NCBI RefSeq assembly: GCF_003991155.1
Contig: NZ_CP031293.1
Origin: Escherichia coli
GTDB taxonomy: Bacteria > Pseudomonadota > Gammaproteobacteria > Enterobacterales > Enterobacteriaceae
Length of the DNA: 64,000 bases
Reading direction: 5' to 3' (one strand)
Part shown: positions 6,094 to 63,728 of the stretch, piece by piece
How positions within the stretch are numbered: position 1 is the first letter of the stretch
Layout: each line of letters begins with the position of its first letter
Notes under the pieces: model-generated
Seen by the model: only the letters and a program-made list of their open reading frames with translations
What the model was told of the DNA's origin: nothing
The model's database searches: none
Translations under genes and position numbers: made by a program

Positions 6094-7050
6094 ATGAACC
6101 CGATTGCAGTTACCCTACTCACCGGTTTTTTAGGCGCGGGCAAAACTACCCTGCTGCGCCATATTCTTAACGAACAGCACGGCTACAAGATTGCCGTGAT
6201 TGAAAACGAATTCGGCGAAGTCTCCGTTGATGATCAACTGATTGGCGACCGCGCCACGCAGATCAAAACGCTGACCAACGGCTGCATCTGCTGTTCGCGC
6301 TCCAACGAGCTGGAAGACGCACTACTCGACCTGCTGGATAATCTCGACAAGGGCAATATTCAGTTCGACCGTCTGGTCATTGAATGCACCGGCATGGCCG
6401 ATCCCGGCCCGATTATTCAGACCTTTTTCTCCCATGAGATTTTATGCCAGCGCTACCTGCTGGACGGCGTGATTGCGCTGGTGGATGCGGTACATGCCGA
6501 TGAGCAGATGAACCAGTTCACCATCGCCCAGTCACAGGTTGGCTACGCCGACCGTATTCTGCTGACTAAAACCGACGTCGCAGGCGAAGCAGAAAAACTG
6601 CGTGAACGCCTGGCGCGCATCAACGCCCGTGCACCGATCTACACCGTCACCCACGGCGACATCGACCTGGGCCTGCTGTTCAACACCAACGGTTTTATGC
6701 TGGAAGAGAACGTCGTCAGCACCAAACCGCGTTTCCACTTTATCGCGGACAAACAAAACGATATTTCGTCGATTGTGGTGGAACTGGATTACCCGGTAGA
6801 TATCAGCGAAGTTTCCCGCGTGATGGAAAACCTGCTGCTGGAGTCGGCGGATAAACTACTGCGTTACAAAGGGATGCTATGGATTGACGGCGAACCTAAT
6901 CGCCTGCTGTTCCAGGGCGTCCAACGCCTCTACAGCGCCGACTGGGACCGCCCGTGGGGCGATGAAACACCGCATAGCACAATGGTGTTTATCGGGATTC
7001 AGCTGCCGGAGGATGAGATTCGGGCGGCGTTTGCGGGGTTGAGGAAGTAA
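6094..7050 (+). CDS. yjiA: CobW/P47K-family GTPase YjiA
   Basis: ATG at 6094 gives 318 aa MNPIAVTLLTGFLGAGKTTLL... with GTP-binding P-loop and CxCC motif; ORF track 6010..7050 extends upstream in frame. Confidence 0.85.
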   Translation: MNPIAVTLLTGFLGAGKTTLLRHILNEQHGYKIAVIENEFGEVSVDDQLIGDRATQIKTLTNGCICCSRSNELEDALLDLLDNLDKGNIQFDRLVIECTGMADPGPIIQTFFSHEILCQRYLLDGVIALVDAVHADEQMNQFTIAQSQVGYADRILLTKTDVAGEAEKLRERLARINARAPIYTVTHGDIDLGLLFNTNGFMLEENVVSTKPRFHFIADKQNDISSIVVELDYPVDISEVSRVMENLLLESADKLLRYKGMLWIDGEPNRLLFQGVQRLYSADWDRPWGDETPHSTMVFIGIQLPEDEIRAAFAGLRK

Positions 7051-7083
7051 TTTTGGATGATGGCCGCCATGTGGCGGCCTGAA

Positions 7084-7386
7084 TTATTTTTTGTTCTGAT
7101 CGCGCAGCATCGCTTCACGTAAAATTGCGTTCAGGCGAGTTTGATAGCCTTTACCTGGTCGCTTCAACCATTCCATCACATCAGAATCAATACGCACCGA
7201 GGCCTGAGTTTTCAATGGCCGATAAAACTTACCGCGTTCTGCGTTAGACCATTGCTCATCGCTGGAAGGTGGGATATCACTGTAATCAATATCTTCGTCG
7301 GATTTATTCGCCAGCGCCTTCAGTTCGGCCTCATGCTGCACATCGAGTGTAGAGGAGGTCCCTCGTTTATGTTTAACCATGCTCAT
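7084..7386 (-). CDS. BrnA-like antitoxin (ribbon-helix-helix type)
   Basis: ATG at 7386 (MSMVKHKRGTSSTLD...); downstream of and overlapping the BrnT-like gene by 14 bp in the toxin-first order typical of brnTA. Confidence 0.6.
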   Translation of the reverse strand: MSMVKHKRGTSSTLDVQHEAELKALANKSDEDIDYSDIPPSSDEQWSNAERGKFYRPLKTQASVRIDSDVMEWLKRPGKGYQTRLNAILREAMLRDQNKK

Positions 7387-7654
7387 AGCGATTCCTCTCT
7401 TTACGATCTGCTTTTCGTGCACTGATGATTCGAATAATTTCATTTCCGCTTTCGAAACGGATGGTATGCGCAACCAGAATAACCACGATGCCGTAAACCA
7501 GGCCGATTGTCTGCCAGCGATACTCACCGTTTTCTATGCGTTCTTGCTGTGACAAATGTTGTGGATCATCAAACACTAACACCGCATCTTCAAAGCGGAT
7601 GCCATGTTTCACCCGATTACTTTTGGCCTTGTTTGCATCCCATTCAAACTCCAT
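7373..7654 (-). CDS. BrnT-like toxin (DUF497 ribonuclease toxin family)
   Basis: Translation MEFEWDANKAKSNRVKHGIRFEDA... matches the conserved N-terminal signature of BrnT/DUF497 toxins; start taken at ATG 7654 (in-frame alternatives at 7660 and 7669). Confidence 0.65.
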   Translation of the reverse strand: MEFEWDANKAKSNRVKHGIRFEDAVLVFDDPQHLSQQERIENGEYRWQTIGLVYGIVVILVAHTIRFESGNEIIRIISARKADRKERNRYEHG

Positions 7655-7856
7655 TGGCATAGTTGCCATCCCTAATTGTATATACAAAAATGTATCTACA
7701 ATTATTCTGCAATTATAGCGTTGATGTTGGAAATAGCATCACGTTTTGGATAATCAACCATGAAATTGACAATGAGTGAGTTGGACTTGATTCATCCAAT
7801 AGAATTTCTCGCCTGACATGGCACACTAAACACCTCGCTGTCGTTAAGGGATTACC

Positions 7857-9023
7857 GTGAAAAACTACAAAGTCATTACCCCGCTTTTTCCTACCTATGC
7901 GCAAGTTAAGGCTATGATGAAAGCCGTCTCAGGCTATTCCCTGAAAGCGGTGCGCAATATGATTACTGCCATTCACGAGCAAACCGGTACGCCGCAAAAA
8001 CCCGTTGACTGGTCAGAACCCGACCTGTGGATCAGCGAGCGCTTAACGGGTGAAGATGCCGACATCGCCCGTCGTATTTGGGATACCGATAATCACATCT
8101 TGAACCCGCGCCACAGCTACGGCTGCTACTTATTCCTCAACTATCCCCAGTTTGAGCTGATGGAAAGCACACCAGATGATATCTGGCAGCCCACCTCGCG
8201 CGGGCAAAAATTCCTGCAAGATGACGAAAAAACGCTGCGTTCACTGGACGACCAGGAAGGCATTCTGCAACTGCTTGAGCTGCTGGCTGGCCGGGAAATG
8301 TCGCGCCGCGCCGATTTATTGCCGGAATGGCAGGCCTTTTTGCATCAGCATTCGAAATTCGCGTCAGCAAGTTCAGTGAAAAGCACGCTCTACTCCCGTC
8401 TCTATAACCTTATCGACCGTGACATGGTTAACCGTGAAGGCATGAGCTATCGCATCACCGATACCGGGCGCGCCTGGCTTGGAAAAGCGTTGCCAGCACG
8501 AAAAAGCGATCCGCGTAAAGAGCTGTTGGAAGCGGTAAAACGCTATAACGAACAGCAAAAAGAGCTGCTGCGCGAACAAATCAGCACGATGAACCCGTAC
8601 AAATTTGAGCAACTGGTTGGTCAATTACTGGAAGCAATGGGCTACGAGCAGGTCGAAGTGACCAAAGCCTCAGGCGACAAAGGTGTGGACGTGATTGGTC
8701 AGGTGCAGGTCGGCATCACCACTATTACCGAAGTGGTGCAGGTCAAAAGAATGCAGAACACTATCACTCGCCCGTATATCGACCAGTTGCGCGGGGCGTT
8801 GCCTTACCACAAAGCCATTCGCGGTACGCTCATCACCACCGGGAAATTTGCGGCGAAATGTGCAGAAGCGGCGCTCTTTCCGGGTGCCGCGCCCATTACG
8901 CTTATCGACGGCGATCGTTTACTGGAACTGTTAATCGAAAATAACGTCGGCATTCGCCGCAGCAATGCAGTGGAATTGCTGGATGTGGATTTGCAGTTGT
9001 TTGATGAGCTGGAGATGGATTAA
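7857..9023 (+). CDS. Mrr-family (type IV-like) restriction endonuclease with extended N-terminal region
   Basis: C-terminal ~130 aa carry the Mrr catalytic core (GDKGVDVIG ... EVVQVKR ... LITTGKF ... LIDGDRL); winged-helix-like segment (SYRITDTGRAWL) upstream; start codon uncertain (GTG 7857 or internal ATG). Confidence 0.65.
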   Translation: MKNYKVITPLFPTYAQVKAMMKAVSGYSLKAVRNMITAIHEQTGTPQKPVDWSEPDLWISERLTGEDADIARRIWDTDNHILNPRHSYGCYLFLNYPQFELMESTPDDIWQPTSRGQKFLQDDEKTLRSLDDQEGILQLLELLAGREMSRRADLLPEWQAFLHQHSKFASASSVKSTLYSRLYNLIDRDMVNREGMSYRITDTGRAWLGKALPARKSDPRKELLEAVKRYNEQQKELLREQISTMNPYKFEQLVGQLLEAMGYEQVEVTKASGDKGVDVIGQVQVGITTITEVVQVKRMQNTITRPYIDQLRGALPYHKAIRGTLITTGKFAAKCAEAALFPGAAPITLIDGDRLLELLIENNVGIRRSNAVELLDVDLQLFDELEMD

Positions 9024-9067
9024 AGGGCGAAATCTGCCGCCTCTACCATTACAATACGGAGTTCATC

Positions 9068-9244
9068 GTGGTCAAAGCACCAACTAAAAAAGCCAAAGCA
9101 AAGAAAAGCTCTGAAGAAACATTATGTGATACCACAAACCAATTTCGTGGTAGCGTTGAGTCCTCCGAATACAAGCACGTGGTGTTAAGCCTCGTGCTCC
9201 AGAAACTCATCAGCGATAAGTTTGAAGCACGCCGCAAAAAATGA
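9068..9244 (+). pseudogene. Truncated 5' fragment of a type I R-M methyltransferase gene (hsdM N-terminal domain only)
   Basis: Reading frame VVKAPTKKAKAKKSSEETLCDTTNQFRGSVESSEYKHVVLSLVLQKLISDKFEARRKK-stop; the SEYKHVV...ISD motif is the hallmark of HsdM N-terminal domains; frame ends after 58 codons. Confidence 0.55.
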
Positions 9245-9903
9245 TTGCCGAAGCGTTAAAAGCTGATGGGATGGAAGAAATTTATTTTTCTGGCGACAAA
9301 AAAGCGGAATCTATCGATATTTTTGACGAAGATTATCTGGCGCGAATTAACAAGATCAAACTTCCAGCAACGAAGATCCTGTTATTACAAAAATTACTGG
9401 AAAAAGCGATCAGCGAGTTCAGGAAAGTGAACCAGTTGCAAGGGATTAACTTCACCCGCCGCTTCCAGGCGATTATAGATCGTTATAATGAGCGGCGAGA
9501 AGATGATGTACTCAACGGTGAAGAATTCGATACATTCAGTCAGGAAATGATTGATATTATCTATGATATTAAAACCGAAATGGGCACCTGGGCCGATTTA
9601 GGCATTGATATTGAAGAAAAAGCCTTTTTCGACATTCTTGCTCATATGCGCGATAAATATCAGTTCACCTATGACGATGAAAAAATGCTGTCACTGGCAA
9701 AAGAGATGAAAAGCGTTGTTGACAACACATCGAAATATCCTGACTGGAGTAAACGCGATGATATTAAAGCGAAACTGAAAGTTGAACTTATTCTGCTTCT
9801 ACACAAGCATAAGTTCCCGCCAGTAGCGAATGATGATGTTTATATGGGTGTGCTGGCACAGGCAGAGAATTTTAAAGAACATCATATGAGTGCTTTAAAT
9901 TAA
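9241..9903 (+). pseudogene. 3' fragment of a type I R-M restriction subunit gene (hsdR C-terminal DUF3387-like domain)
   Basis: 220-aa ORF with EEKAFFDIL ... DWSKRDDIKAKLKVELILLLHKHKFPP, the conserved C-terminal domain pattern of HsdR; no helicase or nuclease domains upstream; begins in a different frame immediately at the stop of the hsdM fragment. Confidence 0.6.
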
Positions 9904-9910
9904 TTATGAA

Positions 9911-9936
9911 GGCCGGATACACTTTGTTATCCGGCC
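9911..9936 (+). terminator. Stem-loop (REP-like palindrome) after the hsdR remnant
   Basis: GGCCGGATA ... TATCCGGCC 9-bp inverted repeat; weak T-tract, so terminator function uncertain. Confidence 0.35.
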
Positions 9937-10024
9937 ATTCTGAATTAACGTTAATTTCTCTTCCAGATCTTTCCAGTAACGCTTTTATTATTTTCTATTT
10001 TTAGCTGGACTTTCCCTGTATTTA

Positions 10025-10040
10025 CTGATGATATATCCAG
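10025..10040 (+). promoter_or_regulatory. Putative LexA box (CTG-N10-CAG) in the symE promoter
   Basis: CTGATGATATATCCAG about 80 bp upstream of the symE ATG; symE is a known SOS-regulated gene. Confidence 0.55.
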
Positions 10041-10047
10041 GTATTTA

Positions 10048-10124
10048 GCGCGGTGCGAATGTGCGCCAACACACCCGCACCGCTCATCACAATCCCTATT
10101 TCACGAGAATAGTAATCATGACTG
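10048..10124 (-). ncRNA. symR: SymR-like cis-antisense sRNA overlapping the symE 5' end (position inferred)
   Basis: By analogy with K-12 symE/symR; a TAGAAT -10-like hexamer lies on the minus strand just inside the symE coding start. Exact ends not determinable from sequence alone. Confidence 0.35.
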
Positions 10125-10456
10125 ACACGCATTCTATTGCACAACCGTTCGAAGCAGAAGTCTCCCCGGCAAATAACCGTCAATTAACCGTGAGTTATGC
10201 GAGCCGCTACCCGGATTACAGCCGTATTCCCGCCATCACCCTGAAAGGTCAGTGGCTGGAAACCGCCGGTTTTGCTACCGGCACGGCGGTAGATGTCAAA
10301 GTGATGGAAGGCTGTATTGTCCTCACCGCCCAACCACCCGCCGCCGAAGAGAGCGAACTGATGCAGTCACTGCGCCAGGTGTGCAAGCTGTCGGCGCGTA
10401 AACAAAGGCAGGTGCAGGATTTTATTGGGGTGATTAGTAGCAAAACGCCACGCTAA
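10118..10456 (+). CDS. symE: SOS-induced toxin-like protein SymE
   Basis: ATG at 10118: [48 protein letters not shown]... recognised as SymE (YjiW). Confidence 0.85.
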
Positions 10457-10497
10457 GTTTCTCTCCCCTTCCCCATACGGAAAGGGGAATTGCCCCC

Positions 10498-10662
10498 TCA
10501 CTCCACATCTTCCCTGCGTAACCCAATATCCCTCAACCGCTCATCACTCATCTGCTGTAACACCCGCCGGGCCTGCATTTGCCGCCGCCAACGCCTCACT
10601 GCCTGCCAGAGTTGCACAAGTCCAATAAACGGTGCTTTAGCTTTGTTTTCGTGAAATTCCAT
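10498..10662 (-). CDS. yjiS: DUF1127 small protein YjiS
   Basis: Not in the ORF track (54 aa); minus-strand translation MEFHENKAKAPFIGLVQLWQAVRRWRRQMQARRVLQQMSDERLRDIGLRREDVE with the DUF1127 signature. Confidence 0.8.
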   Translation of the reverse strand: MEFHENKAKAPFIGLVQLWQAVRRWRRQMQARRVLQQMSDERLRDIGLRREDVE

Positions 10663-46684: not shown

Positions 46685-48418
46685 ATGGAAATCATATTAC
46701 CAAAAAACACCTTATATGACAGAGAGCAAAATGTCTTTTTTGAAAAGGTTACGGCCTTAATTGGCGAAAATGGTGCTGGTAAGTCCTCGATTTTACAATC
46801 CGTATTTATTAACTGTTTAACAAAAAAATATCTACCAGAAACAAAGGTTGTTTGTTTTTCTTCTGGACAAAATGAGAAATACTCAACGTACTTCTCTGAT
46901 TATCTTTCTCATGAAAGGCAAGCAAATAGAGGTCTTAACTTAGATTGTTGTTATTACGATAAATCATGGTCAAAGTTACTAATATTCATATCCACAATTT
47001 GTAAATCAAATGGTCTTGTTAGAAATTTTTTATGTGAGAAAGGCTATATTGATGTATCAGATGATAAAAATGATGATATATCAAGCAAGCTTACATTGAC
47101 GGTCCGAGTAAATTCGGCTTACGTTAATCGAGTAAAAATGGCATTAGCACAAGAAGAACAAGGTATTGAAAATACTTTAAGGTATTCAGCTTATCATAGG
47201 ACTTTAGAAAGTTTCATTAATAATATTGTTAATGCTGATTATGATTTCGAGTCTCCACTTGAAGCTCAAGAGATCTTGCTAACTCATTCAAATTTTTTCA
47301 ATCCATCATTTGAGGAAGCAGAAGATTCCTTTTTTGATCCTATCATAACATTTTTCACTCAAGCAGCAGATAATGATTACTTTATAATAAAACCATCATT
47401 ACAGCTAGAGTTTAAAAATAATATCGAACTGAATGATATTAGTGATGGGGAATATCAAGTACTCTTTTTATACTCTCTGCTTGATATTTTTGATAGTCCT
47501 AATACTTTATTCTTATTAGATGAGATAGATTCCCATTTACATTACAAGAATATTGAGCTCTTATGGCATCGACTACATAGTATTAATGGTTATGCGATAA
47601 CAACCACCCATCTATTAGACTCAATTACAGCTACTGATAATGATTTTAAAAACTTAAAGATTGTTGATAAAGGAAAAATAAAAGAAGATGATAAAATAAA
47701 AACTATAATAGAACGTTTATCTGTCTTGACAAGAATATCAGACGTACAGTTCGAAGTGTGTCGTAAACTAGAAAACATAGTATTGATGGATGATTATAAT
47801 GATTGGACTATTTTTTATGCCTTAGCAAAGAAAAAAGGACTTGATGTATCAAAGTTAGATGGCCTCCATGCAATAAAACAGTCCTCTGGTTACGATAATT
47901 TAAATCAAGAGTTCGCAAAACCAAAAATAGAGTGGATTAATTCGCTTTTAAATGTAAATACTGATAAAAAAGTCAAAAGAATATTCATGATCTGCGACAA
48001 AGATGAGGCTCCAATTACCTATCAGAAAGATGGAGTTCAAGTCAATGGAAGTGAATATTCAAAACATATAGCGAAGTTAGAAAATAAAAACAAAAATAAA
48101 ATATATCTCCTTGCATGGAAAAGAAGAGAAATAAAAAACTACTTACTATCTTATACGGCATTGTCCCATCATGGATTTATCGAGCAAATAAACAATGGAG
48201 ATCTGCCAGCTAACAGTTATTTAAAAGAAAACGATCCTGGAGATAATTCAGCAATTAGCCGGCTTAACGTAAAACATTGCATCACAAAAATAATTGATTC
48301 TGATGGTATAGGATTAGATATATCAAAACTTTACTCATATATAGAACTTATACCACCTGCTGAGATCAGTGAAGATATAGTGAACATGTACAATTTTTTG
48401 GTGGAGAAATTAAAATGA
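46685..48418 (+). CDS. OLD/PARIS-like ABC-type ATPase (AAA_15/21-like) with C-terminal Toprim-like (RloB/DUF4435-like) domain
   Basis: 577 aa; Walker A LIGENGAGKSSIL, Walker B/D-loop LFLLDEIDSHLH, C-terminal DxD-type motif IFMICDKDE; very AT-rich coding sequence; stop overlaps the next gene's start (ATGA). Confidence 0.6.
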   Translation: MEIILPKNTLYDREQNVFFEKVTALIGENGAGKSSILQSVFINCLTKKYLPETKVVCFSSGQNEKYSTYFSDYLSHERQANRGLNLDCCYYDKSWSKLLIFISTICKSNGLVRNFLCEKGYIDVSDDKNDDISSKLTLTVRVNSAYVNRVKMALAQEEQGIENTLRYSAYHRTLESFINNIVNADYDFESPLEAQEILLTHSNFFNPSFEEAEDSFFDPIITFFTQAADNDYFIIKPSLQLEFKNNIELNDISDGEYQVLFLYSLLDIFDSPNTLFLLDEIDSHLHYKNIELLWHRLHSINGYAITTTHLLDSITATDNDFKNLKIVDKGKIKEDDKIKTIIERLSVLTRISDVQFEVCRKLENIVLMDDYNDWTIFYALAKKKGLDVSKLDGLHAIKQSSGYDNLNQEFAKPKIEWINSLLNVNTDKKVKRIFMICDKDEAPITYQKDGVQVNGSEYSKHIAKLENKNKNKIYLLAWKRREIKNYLLSYTALSHHGFIEQINNGDLPANSYLKENDPGDNSAISRLNVKHCITKIIDSDGIGLDISKLYSYIELIPPAEISEDIVNMYNFLVEKLK

Positions 48419-50322
48419 ACACCTCTTTATTTGAAGATCTACTTACACTAATCAAGAAAAAGAGTTCGATAAGGAATACAGAACAAGCAGTAGAGTTAAT
48501 TTCATTATTTATTTTTTTACATTATATAAAATTATATCTTTATGAAAATGATAAAAGATTTTCAGATATAAAAAACATATCAAGCAACAACATTAATGAA
48601 ATTAAATATTATTATCAGCAACTATATGAAAGTTTTATTTTCTCGATAGATATAAAAAATATAAACCACGACATGCTTGAAAAGCTCAGGAGTAAGATAG
48701 GTTTTTTAATTAATAACATCAATGACCATGAAATAATTAAATATATAGATTATTCTATTTCGCAGATACATTCACTTACAGAATTCTATCAATATGCAAA
48801 TTCTTATCAATCTTTAATTCTTAGGATGGTTAATGAATCGGGTCGTTCAGGTGAATATGTTACTCCATCTGCTTTAGTTCAGCTCATGGTTGAAATGTTA
48901 TCACCTACAGATGGCACATCAATCTACGACCCCGCATGTGGAACTGGGGGTTTATTAATAGAGTCAGCACGATATATTAAAGGCAACAGTTTAAACAAAA
49001 ACTTAAATTTAAATTATTCCCTTATTGGTAATGACACATCATCATTTGCCTGTCTAATCTCAATTGTTAACCTTTTAATCAATAAAGAATTTAATTTTGA
49101 AATAATACTAAAAGATAGCTTAGATATAAATTATAAGAATACAAAATATGACTTTATTTTAACTAACCCACCATTTGGGAAAAAGAGCGGTTGGGATAAT
49201 ATTCATATTGACACACATTATAAAGGACCTAATCTAGACTATTACTTCCTGGAGCATGTTATTGACTCTCTCGCTGTTAATGGCAAAGCAGCCATAATAT
49301 TACCAGAGCGTTTTTTATATGATGTGAGTAAAGAGTGCATCACTCTTAAAGATAAGATCTTCCAAAATTATAATTTAGATTGTATTTTATCTATACCGTC
49401 AGGTGCATTGCTTCCTTACACTGCAGTAAAATTATGTATTCTTTTTATAAGTAATCCTGGCCCAACAGATAGAATATTTTTCTACAATTTAAATAATGGT
49501 GAAAAATACTCACGTACAAATATTATAAAATTCGATGATTTTATAGATTTTTTAGAGTCAGCAAAAAATAGAACAATAACTGAACACTCCTGGATTATCA
49601 ATATTAGTGATACACCTTCATCTTATAACTTACTCTTAAAAGATAAAGAGCGAAACTCATATGAGTTTCTTAGTGATTCTATAGTTAACATTGAACAGAC
49701 AATACGTAATAATGAATTATTACTAACAGAGTTGTCTTTATTAAGAGAAAAAATAGCAATCTTAGAGTCAACAATAAAAAATCATTCGCATGAATATGAA
49801 TTTGAGAGACTTAAAGTTGGAAATATTGCAATAGTAAAATCCGGAAATTTATTACAAAAAAACAGGCTGTTACCCACTGGACCAATTCCTGTATACGGTG
49901 GAAATGGAGTTATTGGATATAACAATGAGGCAATGGTAAATGGTGAAAATATTATTATTGGTAAGGTCGGAGCTCTTTGCGGAAACGTTCGGTATGTTCA
50001 AGGTGATATTTGGGTGACAAATAACTCATTAATTATTAAGAATTATTTACCAAATAAAGTTTTAACACCCTACCTTGCAAAGTTATTATCTACTTTAAAC
50101 TTAAGAAAGCTCGCCGTTGGTACCGCTCAACAATATTTAACCACAACACAAATAAAAAATGTAGAAATTAGCATTCCACCTTTAACGACCCAGCATAAAT
50201 TAAATATGTGGCTTGATGAGTTAGATAATACCCTTGAACAATATAATAAGCTCATTGAAAAAATAATGAATGATAAGCGAGAACTTAAAGAGAATTTGTA
50301 TAAAGGTCTTTTAATAGAATAG
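48415..50322 (+). CDS. HsdM-like N6-adenine DNA methyltransferase fused to one HsdS-type target-recognition domain (M-S fusion)
   Basis: 635 aa; motif X EYVTP, motif I DPACGTGG, motif IV TNPPFG; C-terminal ~180 aa resemble a single TRD plus HsdS conserved helix (KVGNIAIVKSGN ... VTNNSLIIKN ... TTQHKLNMWLDELD); AT-rich; translationally coupled to the upstream gene. Confidence 0.7.
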   Translation: MNTSLFEDLLTLIKKKSSIRNTEQAVELISLFIFLHYIKLYLYENDKRFSDIKNISSNNINEIKYYYQQLYESFIFSIDIKNINHDMLEKLRSKIGFLINNINDHEIIKYIDYSISQIHSLTEFYQYANSYQSLILRMVNESGRSGEYVTPSALVQLMVEMLSPTDGTSIYDPACGTGGLLIESARYIKGNSLNKNLNLNYSLIGNDTSSFACLISIVNLLINKEFNFEIILKDSLDINYKNTKYDFILTNPPFGKKSGWDNIHIDTHYKGPNLDYYFLEHVIDSLAVNGKAAIILPERFLYDVSKECITLKDKIFQNYNLDCILSIPSGALLPYTAVKLCILFISNPGPTDRIFFYNLNNGEKYSRTNIIKFDDFIDFLESAKNRTITEHSWIINISDTPSSYNLLLKDKERNSYEFLSDSIVNIEQTIRNNELLLTELSLLREKIAILESTIKNHSHEYEFERLKVGNIAIVKSGNLLQKNRLLPTGPIPVYGGNGVIGYNNEAMVNGENIIIGKVGALCGNVRYVQGDIWVTNNSLIIKNYLPNKVLTPYLAKLLSTLNLRKLAVGTAQQYLTTTQIKNVEISIPPLTTQHKLNMWLDELDNTLEQYNKLIEKIMNDKRELKENLYKGLLIE

Positions 50323-50330
50323 ATCACAAT

Positions 50331-50357
50331 AGCAGGGTGTCCATAAAACACCCTGCT
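50331..50357. terminator. Hairpin between the convergent M-S fusion gene and hsdR
   Basis: AGCAGGGTG-TCCATAAAA-CACCCTGCT stem-loop. Confidence 0.45.
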
Positions 50358-50402
50358 ACTGGTTGCAAGTAAGTTGCAATATCTGTACTGCTGAAGCTAC
50401 TA

Positions 50403-53400
50403 TTAATAATGCTCCTCAATATACCCATACGCCTTCTGGAACAACTCTTTATCTTTCCCTAGTCCAAACTGGGCCAAGGTCAGTAAAAGCGCCTTTTGGA
50501 TTTCGCGCGGGCCACTGTTGGAATTTTGCCAGCCATCAAAGCGGGTAGCTTTCACAATTTTATCAATTTGCTCTACAACATCACCGATTAACTTAGGGGT
50601 AGTTTCCGGACGTGTTTCGAGGAAAAGCTTAGTCAACGCCTGTTTATTATCAGCTTCAGTTACTGGGCGCTCGCCCGTTTCGCGCTCGGCTTGAACGGTA
50701 TCTTTCGCTGCATCCAACAGGCCTTTCAACCAGTCAATGGCCTTGATAACACCAGCTTCATAGTCCTGACGCAGTTTTTCAAGGCGCTCGCCCAATGCCA
50801 CAAATTTAGGATCATGACTGCCGCGCAAACGTCCCATAAGATCAATCTCCAGGCGTTTGGCACGTTGTTCCTGCTCTTTAGCGGTCAGGGTAAAAATAGC
50901 GTGCTCGTCCATAACCAACTCGTCAATATCATCGCGAATACGATTGATATCAGTATGCTCATGGATCATCTTGATTGTTTCGGGGCCAAGGGCAGCCCAA
51001 ACAAGCGCACCTGTCTGCCCTACCGGACGCACCGATTCATAAATTTGCGCCAGCCATTTATAGTCCTGACGATAAGAGGTCAAAAAAGGATCTGGGTTGA
51101 TAGCTGACCATAACTTGGATAACACACCAAAGCTGGCAGCGAATTCATCGCGTTTCTCGTTGGTCGGCAGGCATTCCTGCGCGGCCATAATACCTTCAAA
51201 ACCAGCTATGGACCGATCCACACCAGGGAAGAAGGACAAACATTTATTCAGTTGTAACGGCAATAGCTCTTTAAATGCCTCAATTCCCTCTACAACTCCT
51301 TCAATTTCTTCAGGGTTATAGGCCAGAGCGGTACGCAGATTTTCGAAAACGCCGAGGTAGTCGATAATTAATCCCATGTCCTTGCGTACAGTATCGGTTT
51401 CGTACAACCGGTTGGTTCGGCACATGGCCTGAAGAAGAGTATGATCGCGTAGAGGCTTATCGAGGTACATGCAGTAGCAAATCGGGGCATCAAAACCCGT
51501 AAGCAGCTTGGCGGTTACGATAATAAGCTGTAATGGATGTTCAGGATCTTTAAAGCATTCAATCAGATCCTTTTGCACCTGTTCTTCGGCATCAATGTGC
51601 TGCCAGCGTTCAAAATCGACTTGTTTGACTGGCAGCTCCAACTCATCATGCCATTTAAGCCAATCCTTGTTGAGCTTGTCTTTTTTGCCACCCTCTTCAA
51701 CTTTAACCGGAGCCTGGTCAACGTTCATAACCACTTCAACCGCATCAAAACCAAGCTTTTCACCGAGCAAATAATACATCTGCACACAGGCTTCGCGATC
51801 GTATACCACAACCATGCCTTTCATCTTTTTCGGCATAACATGGTTGGTAAAATGCTCAGCAATATCATTACTCACCGCAGCCATACGCCTAGGGGATTTC
51901 AGCATGATTGCCAGCTTGCCTGCACGCCTGGACAATGCTGCTTTTTCTTCTTCATCCAGGTTGTTTTCGGTAGCCAGTTGCTCGAACTCTTCATTGATGG
52001 CATCACGATCCACTCGGAGTTCAGCCAGCCGAGGTTCGAACTTCACCGGGTTAGTTGCGCCATCCCGGATCGACTGCTTATAGCTATAGCGGCTCATATA
52101 GCGACCTGGATCTTCTTCGGCACCGAACAATTTGAACGTATTACGATCAATGCCAGAAATCGGAGTACCAGTCAGGCCATAGAAGTGGGCATTGGGCAAC
52201 GCCCAGCGCATTTTCTCGCCTAATCCCCCTTCCTGTGTACGGTGAGCTTCGTCAACCAACACAATGATATTGTCCCGGTTGTTCAGGCCATTAGGGTTGC
52301 TATCGTCAATTTCGATATCTTTAAATTTAAAGATGGTGGTGATTAAAATGCCACGGCTGTCTTGTTCTATGTATTCACCCAACTTTTTGCAGCTTTGCAC
52401 TTTAATCAGATTCTTAACGTCGGCTCCGCCAAAGGTCTCGTTAATTTGGCTGTCCAGATCTCGCCGGTCCACAACGATAAGTACCGTCGGGTTTTTTAAC
52501 GCATTATCGGCACGTAGCATTTTGGCGGCGTAAAGCATCAACAAGGATTTACCCGATCCCTGGAAATGCCAAATAAGACCTTTTTTTGGATAGCCTCTGC
52601 GAACACGCTCAACAATTTGTTTTGCAGCTTCAAATTGCGGATAACGCGGCAGGATTTTAACGCGTTTAGGTGGAGTATTTTTGCCCGTTTTGACGGTTGA
52701 AAATAATGCAAAAGATTCAAGTAACTGCAATAAGGTTTGTGGATTTAACAAACTCTCACAGCTGTTGAGTACCGATGCTAATCCCGGCAGAATTTCATCA
52801 CGAAGCTCAGTATTATGCCAGGGCCCCCAGTCTTTAACTCTGGCATTAATGGCACCATAGGCAAAGGTTTTTCCTTCGCTGGCAAAGCACAGCAAGTTAG
52901 GTACAAAGAAAGATTCAACATTTTTCCAGTAGTACTTTTTGCCACCCATGAAATCGGCAGCACCGTCTTGCCAGGTCACGCTGGGGCGTGTTGCGGTTTT
53001 AACTTCGCCCACTACTAGCGGTATGCCGTTCACATAAAGAACAATATCAAAATAGACTTCAGTGGCCGCGATATAGCGAACCTGCTGCGCCACCACAAAG
53101 TGGTTGTTCTCTATATTGTCAAAATCAATCAGATTGATGGTGATATGGTCGCCATTCTTACCAAAAGGCAAGGTTTTGTCGGCCATCAACCATTCCTGGA
53201 AGTTTTCATTGGCCTTTACCAAGCCGGTATGGCGGGCTTCTAAAACCACTCCTCGCAGTTTGTAAATGACCTCATCGGCATAGTCAGGCTGTCTGCCGAT
53301 ATCAGGGTTTAACGAACAAAGCGCGTCTTTTAGCCACTCATCAACGAAGATATCCTGCGCTTGTTTAGGCAGGTTTTCACCGTGGCAGTAAGTCCACTTG

Positions 53401-53465
53401 ACTCCGCTTAAACCTTTTAAACGGTCGATAATTCCATTTTCTGTGACGGTTTGTTCGTTAAACAA
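50403..53465 (-). CDS. hsdR: Type I restriction enzyme R subunit
   Basis: 1020 aa; SF2 helicase motifs (GSGKSLLMLYAA Walker A, VLVDEAHRTQ DEAH box); last gene of a tightly packed four-gene operon. Confidence 0.9.
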   Translation of the reverse strand: MFNEQTVTENGIIDRLKGLSGVKWTYCHGENLPKQAQDIFVDEWLKDALCSLNPDIGRQPDYADEVIYKLRGVVLEARHTGLVKANENFQEWLMADKTLPFGKNGDHITINLIDFDNIENNHFVVAQQVRYIAATEVYFDIVLYVNGIPLVVGEVKTATRPSVTWQDGAADFMGGKKYYWKNVESFFVPNLLCFASEGKTFAYGAINARVKDWGPWHNTELRDEILPGLASVLNSCESLLNPQTLLQLLESFALFSTVKTGKNTPPKRVKILPRYPQFEAAKQIVERVRRGYPKKGLIWHFQGSGKSLLMLYAAKMLRADNALKNPTVLIVVDRRDLDSQINETFGGADVKNLIKVQSCKKLGEYIEQDSRGILITTIFKFKDIEIDDSNPNGLNNRDNIIVLVDEAHRTQEGGLGEKMRWALPNAHFYGLTGTPISGIDRNTFKLFGAEEDPGRYMSRYSYKQSIRDGATNPVKFEPRLAELRVDRDAINEEFEQLATENNLDEEEKAALSRRAGKLAIMLKSPRRMAAVSNDIAEHFTNHVMPKKMKGMVVVYDREACVQMYYLLGEKLGFDAVEVVMNVDQAPVKVEEGGKKDKLNKDWLKWHDELELPVKQVDFERWQHIDAEEQVQKDLIECFKDPEHPLQLIIVTAKLLTGFDAPICYCMYLDKPLRDHTLLQAMCRTNRLYETDTVRKDMGLIIDYLGVFENLRTALAYNPEEIEGVVEGIEAFKELLPLQLNKCLSFFPGVDRSIAGFEGIMAAQECLPTNEKRDEFAASFGVLSKLWSAINPDPFLTSYRQDYKWLAQIYESVRPVGQTGALVWAALGPETIKMIHEHTDINRIRDDIDELVMDEHAIFTLTAKEQEQRAKRLEIDLMGRLRGSHDPKFVALGERLEKLRQDYEAGVIKAIDWLKGLLDAAKDTVQAERETGERPVTEADNKQALTKLFLETRPETTPKLIGDVVEQIDKIVKATRFDGWQNSNSGPREIQKALLLTLAQFGLGKDKELFQKAYGYIEEHY

Positions 53466-53466
53466 T

Positions 53467-54633
53467 TTATTGTCCCCTCAGAAGAATATTCAAATAACTG
53501 GACTTGAGTTTACGAATTTTTTGAAGCCTTGATTTAGCTTCTCTATAACTGTTTTCGGCTAAATGTAATATATCCTTATATTTCCCAAGCTCTCTTGATG
53601 GTGGTATAACCATCTTCTGAGAATGTACATCGGCATCATTAACAGCCGGGAAACTTGTACCAACTGCCAAATTGGTTAATGAATAAGTGAATTGCTTCGA
53701 CAAAGTGAAATAATAAATAAAATCGGACAAATCATTTTTTGCCCTTAGAACAGTAAAACCTGTTGATGCTATTGAATCATTCAATATTTCAGACACATAA
53801 AACGTAGCTCTATGATTGGGTCTAACAGTGCTAACAACAATATCTTTTTCCTTAAGAATACGCCGAGCTCGGCTGGGGGCTTCAGCGAAATGGTATTCTT
53901 TAGGAGTATCGACAAAACCAGGAAAAGTCACTGAAGATATATCTATATACCTAATCAGCTTATTTTTATTGGCATCATTACTTAACAAGTCAAAATTAAT
54001 ATTTGATACATCCTTCAATCTAACTTTGTTATATCCAAATGGCAGTTTTTCTTTTCGATCAAATGTAGTCAACCGATCAATTAATCTTTGAAATAAATTT
54101 AATGCAGACCTTTCAGTCTCATTTGCACAATGTAATACTTGTTCGATTTTTTTTAAAGAATTTAAAAAATCAACTTGCAGATCCATTTCAGGAATAATAA
54201 ATTCCTGCTGACTTAAAACTTTCCATTTTATCGTTGGAGACAATGACCCCTCCGAAATTGCTACTGCACGATTCATGAAAGTATCAGACTGCATAATAAA
54301 GGGTAAAAACTCAGGTATTACAGTATTTGAATTTGCCTCCAGAACCATGGCATGAGCCGAACAGATACAATCCCAATCTGCTACCGCGACTTTACGTTGA
54401 TAAGCACGACGCTTACCAAAAATAATCTGGCCTTTTTTCACTAAAAGCTTCTGCCCTTCAACGTCACTGGGTGTACCATGACGTTTGATTTTCAGGCTGT
54501 CAGGGTCTAAATGCTCCAAACCGACATAAATTTCAAGGTCTGTCTCGCTCGGTTCCACTCGTTTAGAGATATGTTTAGCGATATCGCCAAACTTCACCAT
54601 TTGCCAGCCTTCAGGTAATTGCTGTTCTGTCAT
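53467..54633 (-). CDS. hsdS: Type I R-M specificity subunit (two TRDs)
   Basis: 388 aa with two TRD-like halves separated by a conserved central region; AT-rich; abuts hsdM2 and hsdR. Confidence 0.85.
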   Translation of the reverse strand: MTEQQLPEGWQMVKFGDIAKHISKRVEPSETDLEIYVGLEHLDPDSLKIKRHGTPSDVEGQKLLVKKGQIIFGKRRAYQRKVAVADWDCICSAHAMVLEANSNTVIPEFLPFIMQSDTFMNRAVAISEGSLSPTIKWKVLSQQEFIIPEMDLQVDFLNSLKKIEQVLHCANETERSALNLFQRLIDRLTTFDRKEKLPFGYNKVRLKDVSNINFDLLSNDANKNKLIRYIDISSVTFPGFVDTPKEYHFAEAPSRARRILKEKDIVVSTVRPNHRATFYVSEILNDSIASTGFTVLRAKNDLSDFIYYFTLSKQFTYSLTNLAVGTSFPAVNDADVHSQKMVIPPSRELGKYKDILHLAENSYREAKSRLQKIRKLKSSYLNILLRGQ

Positions 54634-56133
54634 TTACTGCTCCACCTTGCTTTCAACGTTATATCCAAGCTCTGCAAGGCTCTGGAATAATTTATTAGTT
54701 TGCTTTTTCAACTGAGTACGGCTTACTTTCCACGCTTCAATCGCATGTTCAATATTATGTACTTCAGCGTTGTTTTGTGCTTGCACATACAGTGGAATTG
54801 AAAGGTTATAAAGGTTTTCTTTAATAGCTTCAATATTCACTAAAGAGGTTATATCGTTTTTTTTCTCCGGATTAAAATAAGCCTCGCATAATACCTCCAA
54901 ATCCTCATCGGATAAGCGACTATGAGCGCGTTCACGGGTAACATGCTCAACCCCGTTGATAAATAACACTTTATTTTTGCGTTCGGCAGGTTTATTGCAA
55001 TTAAGCACCACCACACAAGATTCCATCGGCGAGTTATAAAACAGATTTGGTCCCAAACCAATCACCGCTTCAATAATGTCCGATTCAATCACCTGTTTAC
55101 GAATGGCCTGCTCAGAATCACGGAACAGCACACCGTGTGGCCAGAGCATAGCAGCACGACCGGTATCGGGTTTTAAACTTTTAATTATATGGGTATAAAA
55201 AGCATAATCAGCGCAGCCCTGCGGTGGGACACCATAAAGATTTCGACCATACGGATCAGCAGCAAACTTGTCACGATTCCATTTTTTAATGGAGTACGGT
55301 GGGTTGGCAAAAATCACATCAAACTGCTTGAGCCGATCGTTTTCAATAAACTTTGGCTCAGCCAAAGTATCACCACGCAGCACATCAAACTCTTCAATAT
55401 CGTGCAGGAACATATTCATACGGGCGATTGCGGATGTCAGCAGGTTCACTTCCTGACCATAAAGGTGCACAGAGCGCCACTCTTCCCCTCTAGCACGCAG
55501 ATCCATCACTGCATTTAGCAACATCCCACCTGTGCCACACGTTGGATCATAGGCGGTTTCACCCGGTTTTAAGCCCATAATGCGCGTCATTAAATGCACG
55601 ACTGTTCGGTTGGTGTAGAACTCTGCTGCCGTATGACCGGAATCATCAGCGAACTTTTTAATCAGGTATTCGTAGGCCTCACCAAGATCATCCTGAGCGA
55701 CAGATTTAATGCCTAGCGGAATTTGACTGAAATGTTCAATCAGATCAGCCAGCAGATGATCGGGCAGGCGCTCTTTATTGGTCCACTGCGCATCACCGAA
55801 GACGCCATGTAAACGCGGATTATTGGCTTCAATTAGTCGAAGCGCATTCTGGATCGCTTCACCAATGTTTTTACTGGTATTGCGTACCTTTTCCCAACTG
55901 GCTTCAGAGGGAATGTTGAAACGGTGAAACATCGGCATGGCGGCATATTCAGCATCACCTTCATGGAGTTCCAGCGCTTCGTTATATTCTTCCAGATAGA
56001 CATCTGACAGGCGTTTGTAAAACAGCAACGGGAAGATATACTGCTTGTAGTCTGATGCGTCAATTTGGCCACGAAGAAATTCGGCGGCTCCCCAGAGCAG
56101 CTCTTCCAGCTTTTTATTACTCATAGTACTCAT
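54634..56133 (-). CDS. hsdM: Type I R-M methyltransferase subunit, paralogue 2 (motif X variant FYTNR)
   Basis: 499 aa; HsdM_N (DASDYKQYIFPLLFYKRLSDVY), DPTCGTGG, ANPPYS; start overlaps the stop of the upstream hsdM paralogue (ATGA). Confidence 0.85.
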   Translation of the reverse strand: MSTMSNKKLEELLWGAAEFLRGQIDASDYKQYIFPLLFYKRLSDVYLEEYNEALELHEGDAEYAAMPMFHRFNIPSEASWEKVRNTSKNIGEAIQNALRLIEANNPRLHGVFGDAQWTNKERLPDHLLADLIEHFSQIPLGIKSVAQDDLGEAYEYLIKKFADDSGHTAAEFYTNRTVVHLMTRIMGLKPGETAYDPTCGTGGMLLNAVMDLRARGEEWRSVHLYGQEVNLLTSAIARMNMFLHDIEEFDVLRGDTLAEPKFIENDRLKQFDVIFANPPYSIKKWNRDKFAADPYGRNLYGVPPQGCADYAFYTHIIKSLKPDTGRAAMLWPHGVLFRDSEQAIRKQVIESDIIEAVIGLGPNLFYNSPMESCVVVLNCNKPAERKNKVLFINGVEHVTRERAHSRLSDEDLEVLCEAYFNPEKKNDITSLVNIEAIKENLYNLSIPLYVQAQNNAEVHNIEHAIEAWKVSRTQLKKQTNKLFQSLAELGYNVESKVEQ

Positions 56134-57629
56134 ACCTCGAAACCTTCTTTGATAAGCAGGGCCTCCAGCTCCTCTTCTGCTTTTTCCAGCTCAGCCAGCT
56201 TCCGTTGAAAATCTTTGAGCGCCTCTTCCACAGTGATGGTTTCTTCTTCGAGTGGCTTTTGCACATAACGAGCAATATTTAGATTGAAGTCATTTTCTTC
56301 AATCTCCTTCAGAGAAACCCAGCGTGCAACGCCTTCGATTTCTTTTGCATCTGGCCCTTGTTGCGCCTGGTCATGATAGATTTGGTATATTTCATCGGCC
56401 TGCTTGTTGGACAGCGTATTCTGCGCACGTCCCTTGGTATAGATTTCTTCAGCATTGATGATCAATACATGATCTTTATGCGCGGCCGGACGTGATTTAC
56501 GCAGCACCAAAATACACGCAGGAATCCCAGTCCCATAGAACAGGTTGGAAGCAACACCAATAATCGCCACAATGCGATTCTCTTGCAGTAATTTGGTTCG
56601 AATTGCCCCCTCTGCGCCGCCACGAAACAGCACACCATGAGGTAATACGACTGCCATACGTCCATTGTCGTTAAGTGAAGCAAACATATGCTGCACCCAG
56701 GCAAAATCACCATTTGTTTTAGGCGCCAGGCCATATTGCTTACGGCCATAGGGATCGTTCGACCACAGATCGTATCCCCATTCTTTTAAGCTAAATGGTG
56801 GGTTGGCAACAACGCAGTCAAAGGTTTCTAAACGATCGCTTTTTAAAAATTTAGGTTCGCGTAAAGTATCCCCTCGGACAATATCGAAATCTTCCTGTCC
56901 ATGCAGGAACAGATTCATACGCGCAATAGCTTCCGTCGTTAAGTTCTTTTCCTGACCCTTGATTTTTAGTAAACGCGGATCACCACCATTTTCTTTTACA
57001 TGGTGGATGGTCTCAAGCAGCATACCACCGGTACCACAGGCGGGATCGTAGACACTCTCACCGGCTTTTGGATCAAGAATGTTAACCATCAAACGAACGA
57101 TAGTTCGTGGGGTATAGAACTCACCGGCTTTCTTATTGGCTTTGTCTGCAAAGCGTTTGATCAGATACTCGTATGCGCGCCCCATATCATCGTCACGGAC
57201 ACTAGAAACGCCAAGGTTCACCTTATTGAAGTGATTGAGTAACGTAGCCAGTAACTCATCAGAAAGGCGTTCTTTATTGGTCCAGCTGGCATCGCCAAAA
57301 ATGCCATGCAGTTTAGGGTTTGCCAGTTCTATACCACGGAAGGACTCTTTTAAAGCCTGACCGATGTCCTTGGTCTCAGCGAAAACATCGCGCCAGTGGC
57401 AATTTTCAGGTATCTGAATACGGTGAAACATCTTGCCCTTGGCAAGCTCTGCATCCCCAATGCTCTCCATCGCATCGGCAAATTCTTCGTCATACACGTC
57501 ACAAATGCGCTTGAAGAACAGGATGGGGAAAATGTACGTTTTGTAATCTGACGCATCAATGGGCCCTGTAATAATATGGGCTGCATGCCATAGATGGGCC
57601 TCGAGATCTTTTAGGTTAATCAGTGTCAT
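56130..57629 (-). CDS. hsdM: Type I R-M methyltransferase subunit, paralogue 1
   Basis: 499 aa from ATG 57629 (MTLINLKDLEAHLW...); DASDYKTYIFPILFFKRICDVY, GEFYTPR, DPACGTGG, ANPPFS; ORF track extends to 57731. Confidence 0.85.
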   Translation of the reverse strand: MTLINLKDLEAHLWHAAHIITGPIDASDYKTYIFPILFFKRICDVYDEEFADAMESIGDAELAKGKMFHRIQIPENCHWRDVFAETKDIGQALKESFRGIELANPKLHGIFGDASWTNKERLSDELLATLLNHFNKVNLGVSSVRDDDMGRAYEYLIKRFADKANKKAGEFYTPRTIVRLMVNILDPKAGESVYDPACGTGGMLLETIHHVKENGGDPRLLKIKGQEKNLTTEAIARMNLFLHGQEDFDIVRGDTLREPKFLKSDRLETFDCVVANPPFSLKEWGYDLWSNDPYGRKQYGLAPKTNGDFAWVQHMFASLNDNGRMAVVLPHGVLFRGGAEGAIRTKLLQENRIVAIIGVASNLFYGTGIPACILVLRKSRPAAHKDHVLIINAEEIYTKGRAQNTLSNKQADEIYQIYHDQAQQGPDAKEIEGVARWVSLKEIEENDFNLNIARYVQKPLEEETITVEEALKDFQRKLAELEKAEEELEALLIKEGFEV

Positions 57630-57872
57630 TGTTGTCTCTTTTCGATCCTGCAGTGCTTGAACTCTCAGCAACTCATGGATTTCACAGTAAAAAAGCAAGT
57701 AAAGCGATTCCACAACCACCTGAGCGTTCAATATGTATGACGCCTTTACCCAAGTTGCTTAAATCAAGGAAATTGCCAGAGATAATACTCTGGCATCAGA
57801 ATGATACCAAGTTGAAGGGCTGATTTCCGCATCAATACCTTGTGGTAATAGGGGATTACTCTTTTACCCTTA

Positions 57873-58910
57873 TTGGCGCAAAATGGCGGCATTTCCTCAT
57901 TTCTCCATCGGAGCATCTTACGCGCTATAACCACTCTCGTTTTTTCCTATTCCCATGCAGATGAAGCACTACGCAATGAACTTGAGAAGCATCTCTCCCC
58001 GCTGAAGCGAACCGGGAAGATCACAACATGGCACGATCGCCGCATCGTTCCTGGTCAGGAGTTCGAACGTCAGATCGACCACTATTTTTCGCAAGCAGAT
58101 ATCATCCTGATCCTGATCAGCAGTGACTTTATTGCTTCTGATTACTGCTATCAGGTAGAGATGAAAAACGCACTGGAACGGCATAACCGGGGCGAGGCAG
58201 TGGTCATTCCGGTAATTTTAAGAGACTGTGCATGGCATCAGTTAGAATTCGGCAGCATTATGGCGGCGACTATCGACGGTAAACCCATCACTAAGTTTGC
58301 CACCCACGATGAAGGCTACGTTCAGGTCGTCGAGGCTGTCTCGCGTGCCATTGCCCGGATGGAAGCCAAAAAACCACAGCAAACCATACATATCCCTTCA
58401 CCGGCTCCGGCGAATCCGATCTTTCAGGGAGTAGATTCCGTTTTTACACCGCGTTCAAGCAACCTTACTCTACCCAAGAAATTTACCGATCTGGATAAAG
58501 ATCGTGCCAGACGTGAGGGCTTTGAATATGTTGCCCGCTATTTTGAAAATTCGTTAGATGAACTCAAAAAGCGCCACCCCGGATTAGATATCGATTTTAA
58601 TCGGCTTGATACAGATTCATTCACCTGTGCCGTGTATATCAATGGCAGTAAGGTCGGCCAATGTGGCATCTGGCGAGGCAATCAACATCATGGAATGGGA
58701 GATATCTGTTATAGCCAGGATAATGTTGTTCGAAACAGTATTAACGAAACTCTAAGCCTTGCTGATAACGGCCAGACTCTTGGTTTTCGTGCTCTGATGG
58801 GAGGCTTCAGTCGAGGAACTTCACGAGACGAACTATTGACCAATGAAGGTATGTCGGAACATCTCTGGGAAATGTTCTTCGGGCTAATCAAGCAAAGAAT
58901 GTCCCGATAA
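57873..58910 (+). CDS. TIR-domain protein with uncharacterised C-terminal domain
   Basis: 345 aa; N-terminal ~150 aa show bacterial TIR pattern (VFSYSHADEALRNELEKHL ... ADIILILISSDFIASDYCYQVEMKNALERH); remaining ~190 aa not recognised. Confidence 0.65.
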   Translation: MAQNGGISSFLHRSILRAITTLVFSYSHADEALRNELEKHLSPLKRTGKITTWHDRRIVPGQEFERQIDHYFSQADIILILISSDFIASDYCYQVEMKNALERHNRGEAVVIPVILRDCAWHQLEFGSIMAATIDGKPITKFATHDEGYVQVVEAVSRAIARMEAKKPQQTIHIPSPAPANPIFQGVDSVFTPRSSNLTLPKKFTDLDKDRARREGFEYVARYFENSLDELKKRHPGLDIDFNRLDTDSFTCAVYINGSKVGQCGIWRGNQHHGMGDICYSQDNVVRNSINETLSLADNGQTLGFRALMGGFSRGTSRDELLTNEGMSEHLWEMFFGLIKQRMSR

Positions 58911-59094
58911 TTTGCCATATCACAGTCGGGCATACTGCCCGATTTTTGTGCTGTCATTATTGGCAATATCTCAATAGGCGTTGAGAAATGGTGCAATTTA
59001 ATCTTGCCAGAGCGCTGTTACTTGGGGACGAAATTAATGGGCTCCTGCTGTAGTTACAGCAACGCCTGTAAATACAAAAATAGGCGTTGCAAAT

Positions 59095-60150: not shown

Positions 60151-60212
60151 TCCATTCAGCCACCTTATCCAGGGGAAAAACACCGATAAGATGGCTAATC
60201 AAAATGTCTGTT

Positions 60213-63200: not shown

Positions 63201-63728
63201 TTGACGCCACTCCTGCTGCAAGGCTGCATATCGTGCTTCCCGTTCTTCATCCGTTTCGGCAGTCTTATCAATGCTGTCATCAAAGTTGATAGAGAACGAG
63301 GTATGGATTGTCTTGTATTTGTCATACTGCCCAATATCACCAATCGAAAATGCTCCTTTTGGCAAAGGTTCAAGCAGGTCTCTGGGAATGGAGGTCGCTG
63401 GCGTCGGATATAAAAAACCCTCACGGCTTAGCAAGGCTGGCGTCACTAGCGGGGTAACAATATCAGGTGCGCCTGCGGAACGGTCCTTACCATGCTGCAG
63501 TAACCGAAAATAAACTTTTGGGCGCAAGACGACATCGACCGTTTCGACATCGTCTTTTTCTCCCTCAAAAAATTTACTGACAATCGCTTCGTCAAGACGT
63601 CCCGCCGCTATCCCATGCCAGTGAGTGAAATTTTTGGCGTCTTTCCGTTCAAAACTGCCCTTTCCTGACTCAGCATCTGCAAGCGAGTTGCGCCAGTATG
63701 AGGCAAACCCTAAAGCATTTTCATCCAT
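60213..63728 (-). CDS. SF1 (Upf1/Dna2-like) helicase fused to C-terminal PLD-family nuclease; type II Mokosh-like
   Basis: 1171 aa; Walker [14 protein letters not shown], Walker [11 protein letters not shown], helicase C-terminal motifs ([17 protein letters not shown]), PLD HxK(x)4D motif [21 protein letters not shown]. Confidence 0.7.

Follow-up and report, generated by a model that had tools for sequence, protein, structure and literature searches.

At positions 9068-9903 of the window, the whole 64,000-nucleotide stretch of Escherichia coli DNA analyzed here, the beginning of one type I gene (hsdM) runs directly into the end of another (hsdR), which raises the question of what the locus once encoded, how it was cut down, and whether anything that is left can still function. 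Our analysis indicated that this region is, very probably, the non-functional relic of an hsdM-hsdS-hsdR type I operon of the immigration control region (ICR), probably of type ID, produced by a short-repeat deletion together with a frameshift. The ICR, in which the fragments are situated, is a hypervariable defence locus and a known hot spot for cassette-like replacement (PMC12707154). The gene order around the scar is yjiX and yjiA, brnA-brnT (7084-7660, minus strand), an Mrr-like nuclease gene, the two fragments, symR (minus strand), symE, yjiS, yjiR, and an rpn gene. The Mrr-like gene (7857-9023, plus strand; Pfam Mrr_cat, E 1.6e-29), annotated as "restriction endonuclease", is intact, encodes a protein found in identical form on at least 1000 contigs, and is the upstream neighbor at intact and scarred loci alike. 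On the right-hand side, the antitoxin RNA symR (10047-10123, minus strand; Rfam RF01809, 88.9 bits) and symE (10118-10456, plus strand, position from the annotation; Pfam SymE_toxin) constitute a conserved flank. No tRNA genes were found within the window. Both brnA and brnT (7084-7687, minus strand) are intact open reading frames in the window; elsewhere, brnT is cut down to a small pseudogene beside an intact brnA (1071-1172 in loci L013 and L014, 6362-6463 in L010, and 6357-6452 in L011), and this truncation was seen at scarred and intact loci alike. The hsdR stop codon is followed at once by a perfect inverted repeat of 9 bp (GGCCGGATA...TATCCGGCC, window 9911-9937). This repeat, behind which there is no T-run, might represent a REP-like element or else a transcript-end hairpin common to intact loci.

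The left-hand fragment, hsdM' (9068-9244, plus strand), comprises 58 codons with a GTG start, contains SEYKHVVLSLVLQKLISD, and ends at a TGA at 9242-9244. The first-pass annotation had read an hsdM beginning of about 58 codons here, a reading borne out by the list of open reading frames, by a Pfam match of the 58-aa peptide to HsdM_N (PF12161; E 6.9e-6; 27.2 bits against a cutoff of 24.5; profile positions 4-44 of 135), and by 86% amino acid identity of residues 16-58 to the same residues of intact HsdM (BLASTP). Pfam gave no match to the N6_Mtase catalytic domain (AdoMet binding, NPPF motif) in hsdM', the frame of which ends after 58 codons; hsdM' is thus an HsdM fragment and no functional member of the HsdM subunit class. 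The right-hand fragment, 'hsdR (9241-9903, plus strand), consists of 220 codons with an ATG start in a frame different from that of hsdM', with the two overlapping as ATGA. Its product is 96.8% identical to residues 868-1087 of the intact 1087-aa HsdR of ATCC 25922 (BLASTP), which agrees with the earlier assignment of this frame to the last ~220 HsdR codons. This identity also refutes the alternative of a conserved stand-alone gene: the frame is the hsdR 3′ end at 97% identity, and PGAP calls it an incomplete pseudogene. The only domain reported for this product on first reading, a DUF3387-like one, was recovered by Pfam as T1RH-like_C (PF11867, formerly DUF3387; E 9.5e-54), but the match spans profile positions 125-328 of 329 only, so that the domain too is cut short. 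Neither Pfam nor NCBIfam matched the N-terminal nuclease and SF2 motor (HSDR_N, ResIII/SWI2_SNF2; TIGR00348) in the 220-aa product; the full-length progenitor HsdR matches TIGR00348 at residues 140-745, all of which are deleted in the window. As judged by alignment, the identities of both fragments to intact HsdM and HsdR are far above chance level.

RefSeq/PGAP already lists both pieces as pseudogenes ("incomplete; partial in the middle of a contig"), with the C-terminus lacking in one and the N-terminus in the other. In strain 2016C-3878 (NZ_CP029747.1), the same allele is present as BEN53_RS01825 and BEN53_RS01820, with 100% identity over window 9000-9960; these entries state neither the deletion endpoints nor the extra frameshift. 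MRY15-117 is a further scar-bearing strain. The two fragments are thus pseudogenes already on record, at a locus where turnover of this kind is known.

To place the fragments, window positions 9000-9960 were compared by megablast with 5,426 complete E. coli genomes. Matches were obtained in 1,096 of these, and in 75 genomes one match ran through the complete query and across the junction. In most of the other matched genomes, the match begins at query base 240 (window 9239), inside a gene annotated as "type I restriction endonuclease subunit R", and these genomes without the scar show a second match that corresponds to the hsdM 5′ end. An intact hsdM-hsdS-hsdR operon occupies the same site, between the Mrr-like gene and symE, in roughly 1,000 of the 5,426 genomes. 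In ATCC 25922 (locus L001; E0708_RS13065/60/55), the order is the Mrr-like nuclease gene, hsdM (539 aa), hsdS (434 aa), hsdR (1087 aa), and symE; the same M-S-R layout was found at this site in MS20659, E189, SMN152SH1, and KC-Dl-1, and the operon is also intact in Nissle. The intact ICR operon, which ST131 genomes carry as well, has the same flanks (brnTA, Mrr-like gene, symR/symE, and yjiS), and the parts retained in the window are 93-98% identical to it in nucleotides. Compared with it, the window shows a frameshift, an altered start codon, and a 19-bp upstream deletion, and ~5.4 kb is gone. Both arms of the scar are collinear with L001: window 7001-9251 aligns with L001 4308-6578 at 95.7% identity, and window 9239-10599 with L001 12001-13362 at 96.0% identity. 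The ~5.4 kb absent between them corresponds to hsdM codons 62-539, the whole of hsdS, and hsdR codons 1-867. With both arms following one intact operon and only the segment between them gone, a single deletion suffices. This is what the first-pass annotation had proposed, namely that one deletion took the 3′ part of hsdM, all of hsdS, and the 5′ part of hsdR from an M-S-R operon; its suggestion that the intact progenitor be found and the endpoints mapped led to the operon at the same site and to endpoints at 13-nt repeats.

Several other rearrangements of this system were seen in the genomes compared. In KC-Dl-1 (L010 7879-9497), an otherwise full-length hsdM is annotated as frameshifted, though not at the run of seven A residues near the junction position; that run is intact, so a shared slip was rejected, and the frameshift represents another independent inactivation. 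M160133 (L007 7002-7211) carries an independent, shorter remnant beside symE, in which 70 codons from the 3′ end of the same hsdR are left, with a breakpoint corresponding to window 9693. There, another cassette with a 3′-5′ exonuclease gene stands in place of brnTA, the Mrr-like gene, and hsdMS, and the breakpoint is common to several genomes. A ~95% identical copy of the M-S-R operon lies outside the ICR in CFS3273 (L009 2316-8656), beside IS66 elements and lutABC, and remnants of the same hsdR truncated by IS elements are present in other strains (L008 6996-7244; L006 6625-7656). The copy outside the ICR and the IS-truncated remnants indicate that the system is not only allelic but also mobile.

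The endpoints of the deletion fall on a 13-nt imperfect direct repeat, AAATGATTGC[C/A]GA, which occurs once in each gene of the intact loci, as AAATGATTGCCGA in hsdM (left; codons 58-62) and as AAATGATTGCAGA in hsdR (right; codons 867-871). The two copies match exactly over 10 nt, have the same codon phase, with ATG ATT GC- (Met-Ile-Ala) in frame in both, and are separated by 5,435-5,513 bp in four to five intact loci, the distance varying with the hsdS allele. At the window junction (9239-9251, plus strand), one copy survives, AAATGATTGCCGA. Intact hsdM reads CGC AAA AAA ATG ATT GCC GAT GGG at this point and intact hsdR reads CGT GAA ATG ATT GCA GAA GCG, and the window junction reads CGC AAAAAA TGATTGCC GAAGCG. 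The window has the left (hsdM) base, C, at 9249 and follows the right (hsdR) copy from 9252 on, which places the crossover in the GA at 9250-9251. Thus, the same short sequence is found at both progenitor endpoints and a single copy at the junction. In E. coli, deletions between short direct repeats of about 5-20 bp arise by slipped misalignment or single-strand annealing, and the window likewise keeps one 13-nt copy (10 nt exact) with the intervening 5.4 kb lost. From the junction, we infer slippage or annealing between the short repeats, and the deletion would probably have been RecA-independent. The operon contains 50 pairs of exact 10-mer repeats, which suggests that this repeat represented an opportunity rather than a designed site.

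The deletion by itself is in frame and yields a fusion of HsdM residues 1-61 to HsdR residues 871-1087 (278 aa). The first-pass annotation had let the deletion pattern explain the switch to another frame as well; the deletion holds, but the frame change is due to a separate loss of 1 nt in a homopolymer run. This run (9236-9241, plus strand) has six A residues (A6) in the window and seven (A7) in every intact hsdM inspected (six alleles). The -1 slip from A7 to A6 gives AAA AAA TGA, with the stop at 9242-9244 overlapping the ATG at 9241. In all 75 junction-bearing genomes, the 101-nt junction is identical to that of the window, A6 included, which indicates a single origin and no sequencing error. 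Among the 5,426 genomes, there was no 100% match to an A7 version of the junction, that is, to the in-frame fusion, and no undeleted progenitor with the scar-specific hsdM substitutions was found.

Recombination or replication slippage between the 13-nt imperfect repeats thus removed ~5.4 kb, and with it the HsdM methyltransferase domain, the complete HsdS, and both the nuclease and the motor of HsdR. The separate 1-nt loss in the A7 run disrupted the potential 278-aa HsdM::HsdR fusion, leaving a stub of 58 codons and an open reading frame of 220 codons, and the remnant has probably drifted neutrally since then. Having lost these domains along with HsdS, the locus cannot restrict or modify. 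The type I activity of this strain, if any, stems from the system at window 50.4-57.7 kb.

The substitution pattern of the remnant was compared with that of the intact alleles. Relative to all intact alleles, the hsdM start codon is changed from ATG to GTG. In total, hsdM' carries 11 scar-specific substitutions (ten of them beyond the start codon, in 168 nt), of which 10 are nonsynonymous, including ATG>GTG, W20C, F44L, L45Q, and F47L, and one is synonymous. The spacer between the Mrr-like gene and hsdM' (9024-9067, plus strand) has lost 19 bp, AGCGACCCAATTTATCTGA, between 9055 and 9056 in all three scar sublineages, whereas AGCGACCCAATTTATCTGA is present in all five intact alleles aligned, and an A>G change in the same spacer has turned the Shine-Dalgarno-like motif before hsdM' from ACAGAG at intact loci into ACGGAG. 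The hsdR part has twelve unique substitutions. The window shares its junction, its A6 run, the loss of the 19 bp, and the changes close to the junction with two other scar sublineages, Z1323HEC0067 and DEF10. Both of these retain the ancestral base at 9134, 9366, 9380, 9417, 9551, and 9717, so the changes of the window at these positions postdate the deletion; post-deletion changes in its sublineage include A23T in hsdM' and Q47L, D59E, and T104I in the 220-aa product. Pooled scar-specific changes amounted to ~17 nonsynonymous and 6 synonymous, compared with 9 and 20 among intact alleles (Fisher p = 0.005; small counts), and the ratio for the scar is no different from the neutral 3:1. Although the counts are small, neither fragment appears to be under purifying selection, and the pattern fits neutral decay. 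The 220-codon frame is open in every copy examined, which is unremarkable, as a stop codon would seldom arise from about a dozen substitutions in 652 nt. The many synonymous differences in the 3′ part of L013 were rejected as post-deletion changes. They cluster at 9753-9932 and run on into the intergenic region, and the SymE protein of this locus (WP_000132618.1) has the same accession as that of MS20659, which together suggest an imported recombination tract. Across the scar sublineages, scar-specific substitutions crowd around the junction (9197-9313), with three at 9197-9206 and nine at 9270-9313, several of these forming adjacent pairs (GTA>ATG, CTT>TCT, and TCC ATC>TTC GTC); the remaining 590 nt of the hsdR part hold only about five. 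Periodic overwriting of the distal part by recombination with intact alleles is a possible cause of this uneven density.

Three other readings of the locus were weighed. According to one, the 220-aa product is a case of domestication: an HsdR C-terminal assembly domain that now stands alone and is translationally coupled to the stub, it could be a decoy that binds HsdM2S of its own family, for example damping restriction by a newly arriving type ID system. In EcoR124I, assembly of HsdR with the methyltransferase is believed to proceed through the C-terminal helical domain, and defective HsdR subunits that can still assemble are trans-dominant (PMC5248579). The frame is intact in all copies seen, the exact protein occurs on at least 1000 contigs, and an ATGA stop-start overlap can support coupling. 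Against this, the domain is the truncated one described above, post-deletion substitutions are mostly nonsynonymous, consistent with neutrality, and no recognizable Shine-Dalgarno sequence precedes the ATG at 9241. In a promoter and terminator scan of 7600-10200, the number of sites was not above that of shuffled controls, leaving no promoter signal beyond chance. Moreover, the window does not encode a cognate HsdM or HsdS; its island system is only about 28% identical. We therefore consider such domestication very improbable, and the same low likelihood applies to the related idea that the frameshift was selected because the HsdR assembly domain, as a decoy, titrates type ID methyltransferase cores. 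If true, the decoy would ease restriction upon gain or loss of a related system. The openness of the frame, its spread, the ATGA overlap, and the change in the ACGGAG motif are all features that do not demand function.

A relic that arose by cassette replacement or by several independent rearrangements (IS-mediated or by foreign import), instead of one internal deletion, would be in keeping with the ICR as a cassette-replacement hot spot (PMC12707154) and with the differently truncated hsdR 3′ remnants that lie beside IS elements or another cassette in other genomes. However, no IS or foreign sequence is present at the junction, the breakpoints lie on matching 13-mers of the one intact operon with which both arms are collinear, and every base is explained by one deletion and one homopolymer slip, which makes this origin very improbable, even more so than the decoy. 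Least credible of all is the reading that attributes the split frame to an error in sequencing or assembling the homopolymer, the real gene being an in-frame HsdM::HsdR fusion. It draws on the fact that one A in a run of six or seven is the sole difference between the fusion and the observed sequence, but A6 is shared by 75 of 75 independent complete genomes with the junction and none matches the A7 version at 100%, so that we give this error next to no weight. The preferred reading, a relic of short-repeat deletion and frameshift, implies that this lineage lost its ICR type I system yet keeps the Mrr-like nuclease, BrnTA, and SymE/SymR, which bears on the prediction of methylome and transformability. 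Beyond annotation, its significance is slight; the junction offers a clean natural example of short-repeat deletion, homopolymer slippage, and neutral decay, and its identical 101-nt sequence can be used as a clonal marker for the 75 complete genomes.

The family of the lost operon was assessed from the intact progenitor (e.g. HsdM WP_001029745.1 and HsdR WP_000058884.1). Its HsdM is 24% identical to that of EcoKI (type IA) and 27% identical to that of EcoCFTI (type IB), and its HsdR has no meaningful similarity to either; the 220-aa fragment gave no significant match to them. The type IA system EcoKI and the type IB systems EcoAI/EcoCFTI are allelic at the yjiA-symE interval of the ICR and also have three subunits, but their gene order is R-M-S, in contrast to M-S-R in the progenitor. 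By these comparisons, the lost operon is neither type IA nor type IB. A sequence search of the PDB with the progenitor returned distant relatives only (EcoR124I and 3KHK), which excludes type IC without naming a family; for the type IC system EcoR124I, the matches were at E 2e-24 over residues 142-510 for HsdR and at E 1e-38 for HsdM. In NCBIfam, the progenitor matched generic hsdR/hsdM models only and the 220-aa product none, and no family-letter class was returned. Members of the type ID family include StySBLI, EcoR9I, and KpnAI. A 2025 review of 8,424 enterobacterial ICR loci found only types IA, IB, and ID, and no IC, accompanied by brnAT, symE/symR, and rpn (PMC12707154), and staphylococcal hsdMSR operons group with StySBLI (PMC10030836), which is an indirect hint for type ID. 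The progenitor lies at the ICR site of EcoKI/EcoCFTI and is distinct from IA and IB, as type ID systems are. By elimination, the lost operon was thus probably type ID.

A second type I system lies far from the scar, in the island at window 50403-57731 (minus strand), with a tandem pair of hsdM genes (open reading frame calls of 499 aa and 533 aa), an hsdS (388 aa), and an hsdR (1020 aa). For the 499-aa HsdM of this system, chain B of PDB 7VRU/7VS4 is a nearly identical match (1011 bits), and the entry includes a second, different M chain as well. At full length, the progenitor HsdM and HsdR share about 28% identity with their island counterparts; of the fragments themselves, the HsdM piece is 31% identical over 42 aa and the HsdR piece has no match. 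The first-pass annotation had called the fragments unrelated to the island hsd genes and of a different family. The difference in family is upheld, but "unrelated" was too strong, as the identity of ~28% marks them as distant homologues and not paralogous copies. The system is part of a defence island at window 46685-63728, beyond fimB and the nan genes, which also encodes an AAA_21 ATPase (46685-48418), an N6_Mtase fused to a specificity domain (48415-50322), a TIR-domain protein (57873-58910), a second Mrr_cat nuclease (59095-60183), and an SF1 helicase with a PLD nuclease domain (60213-63728).
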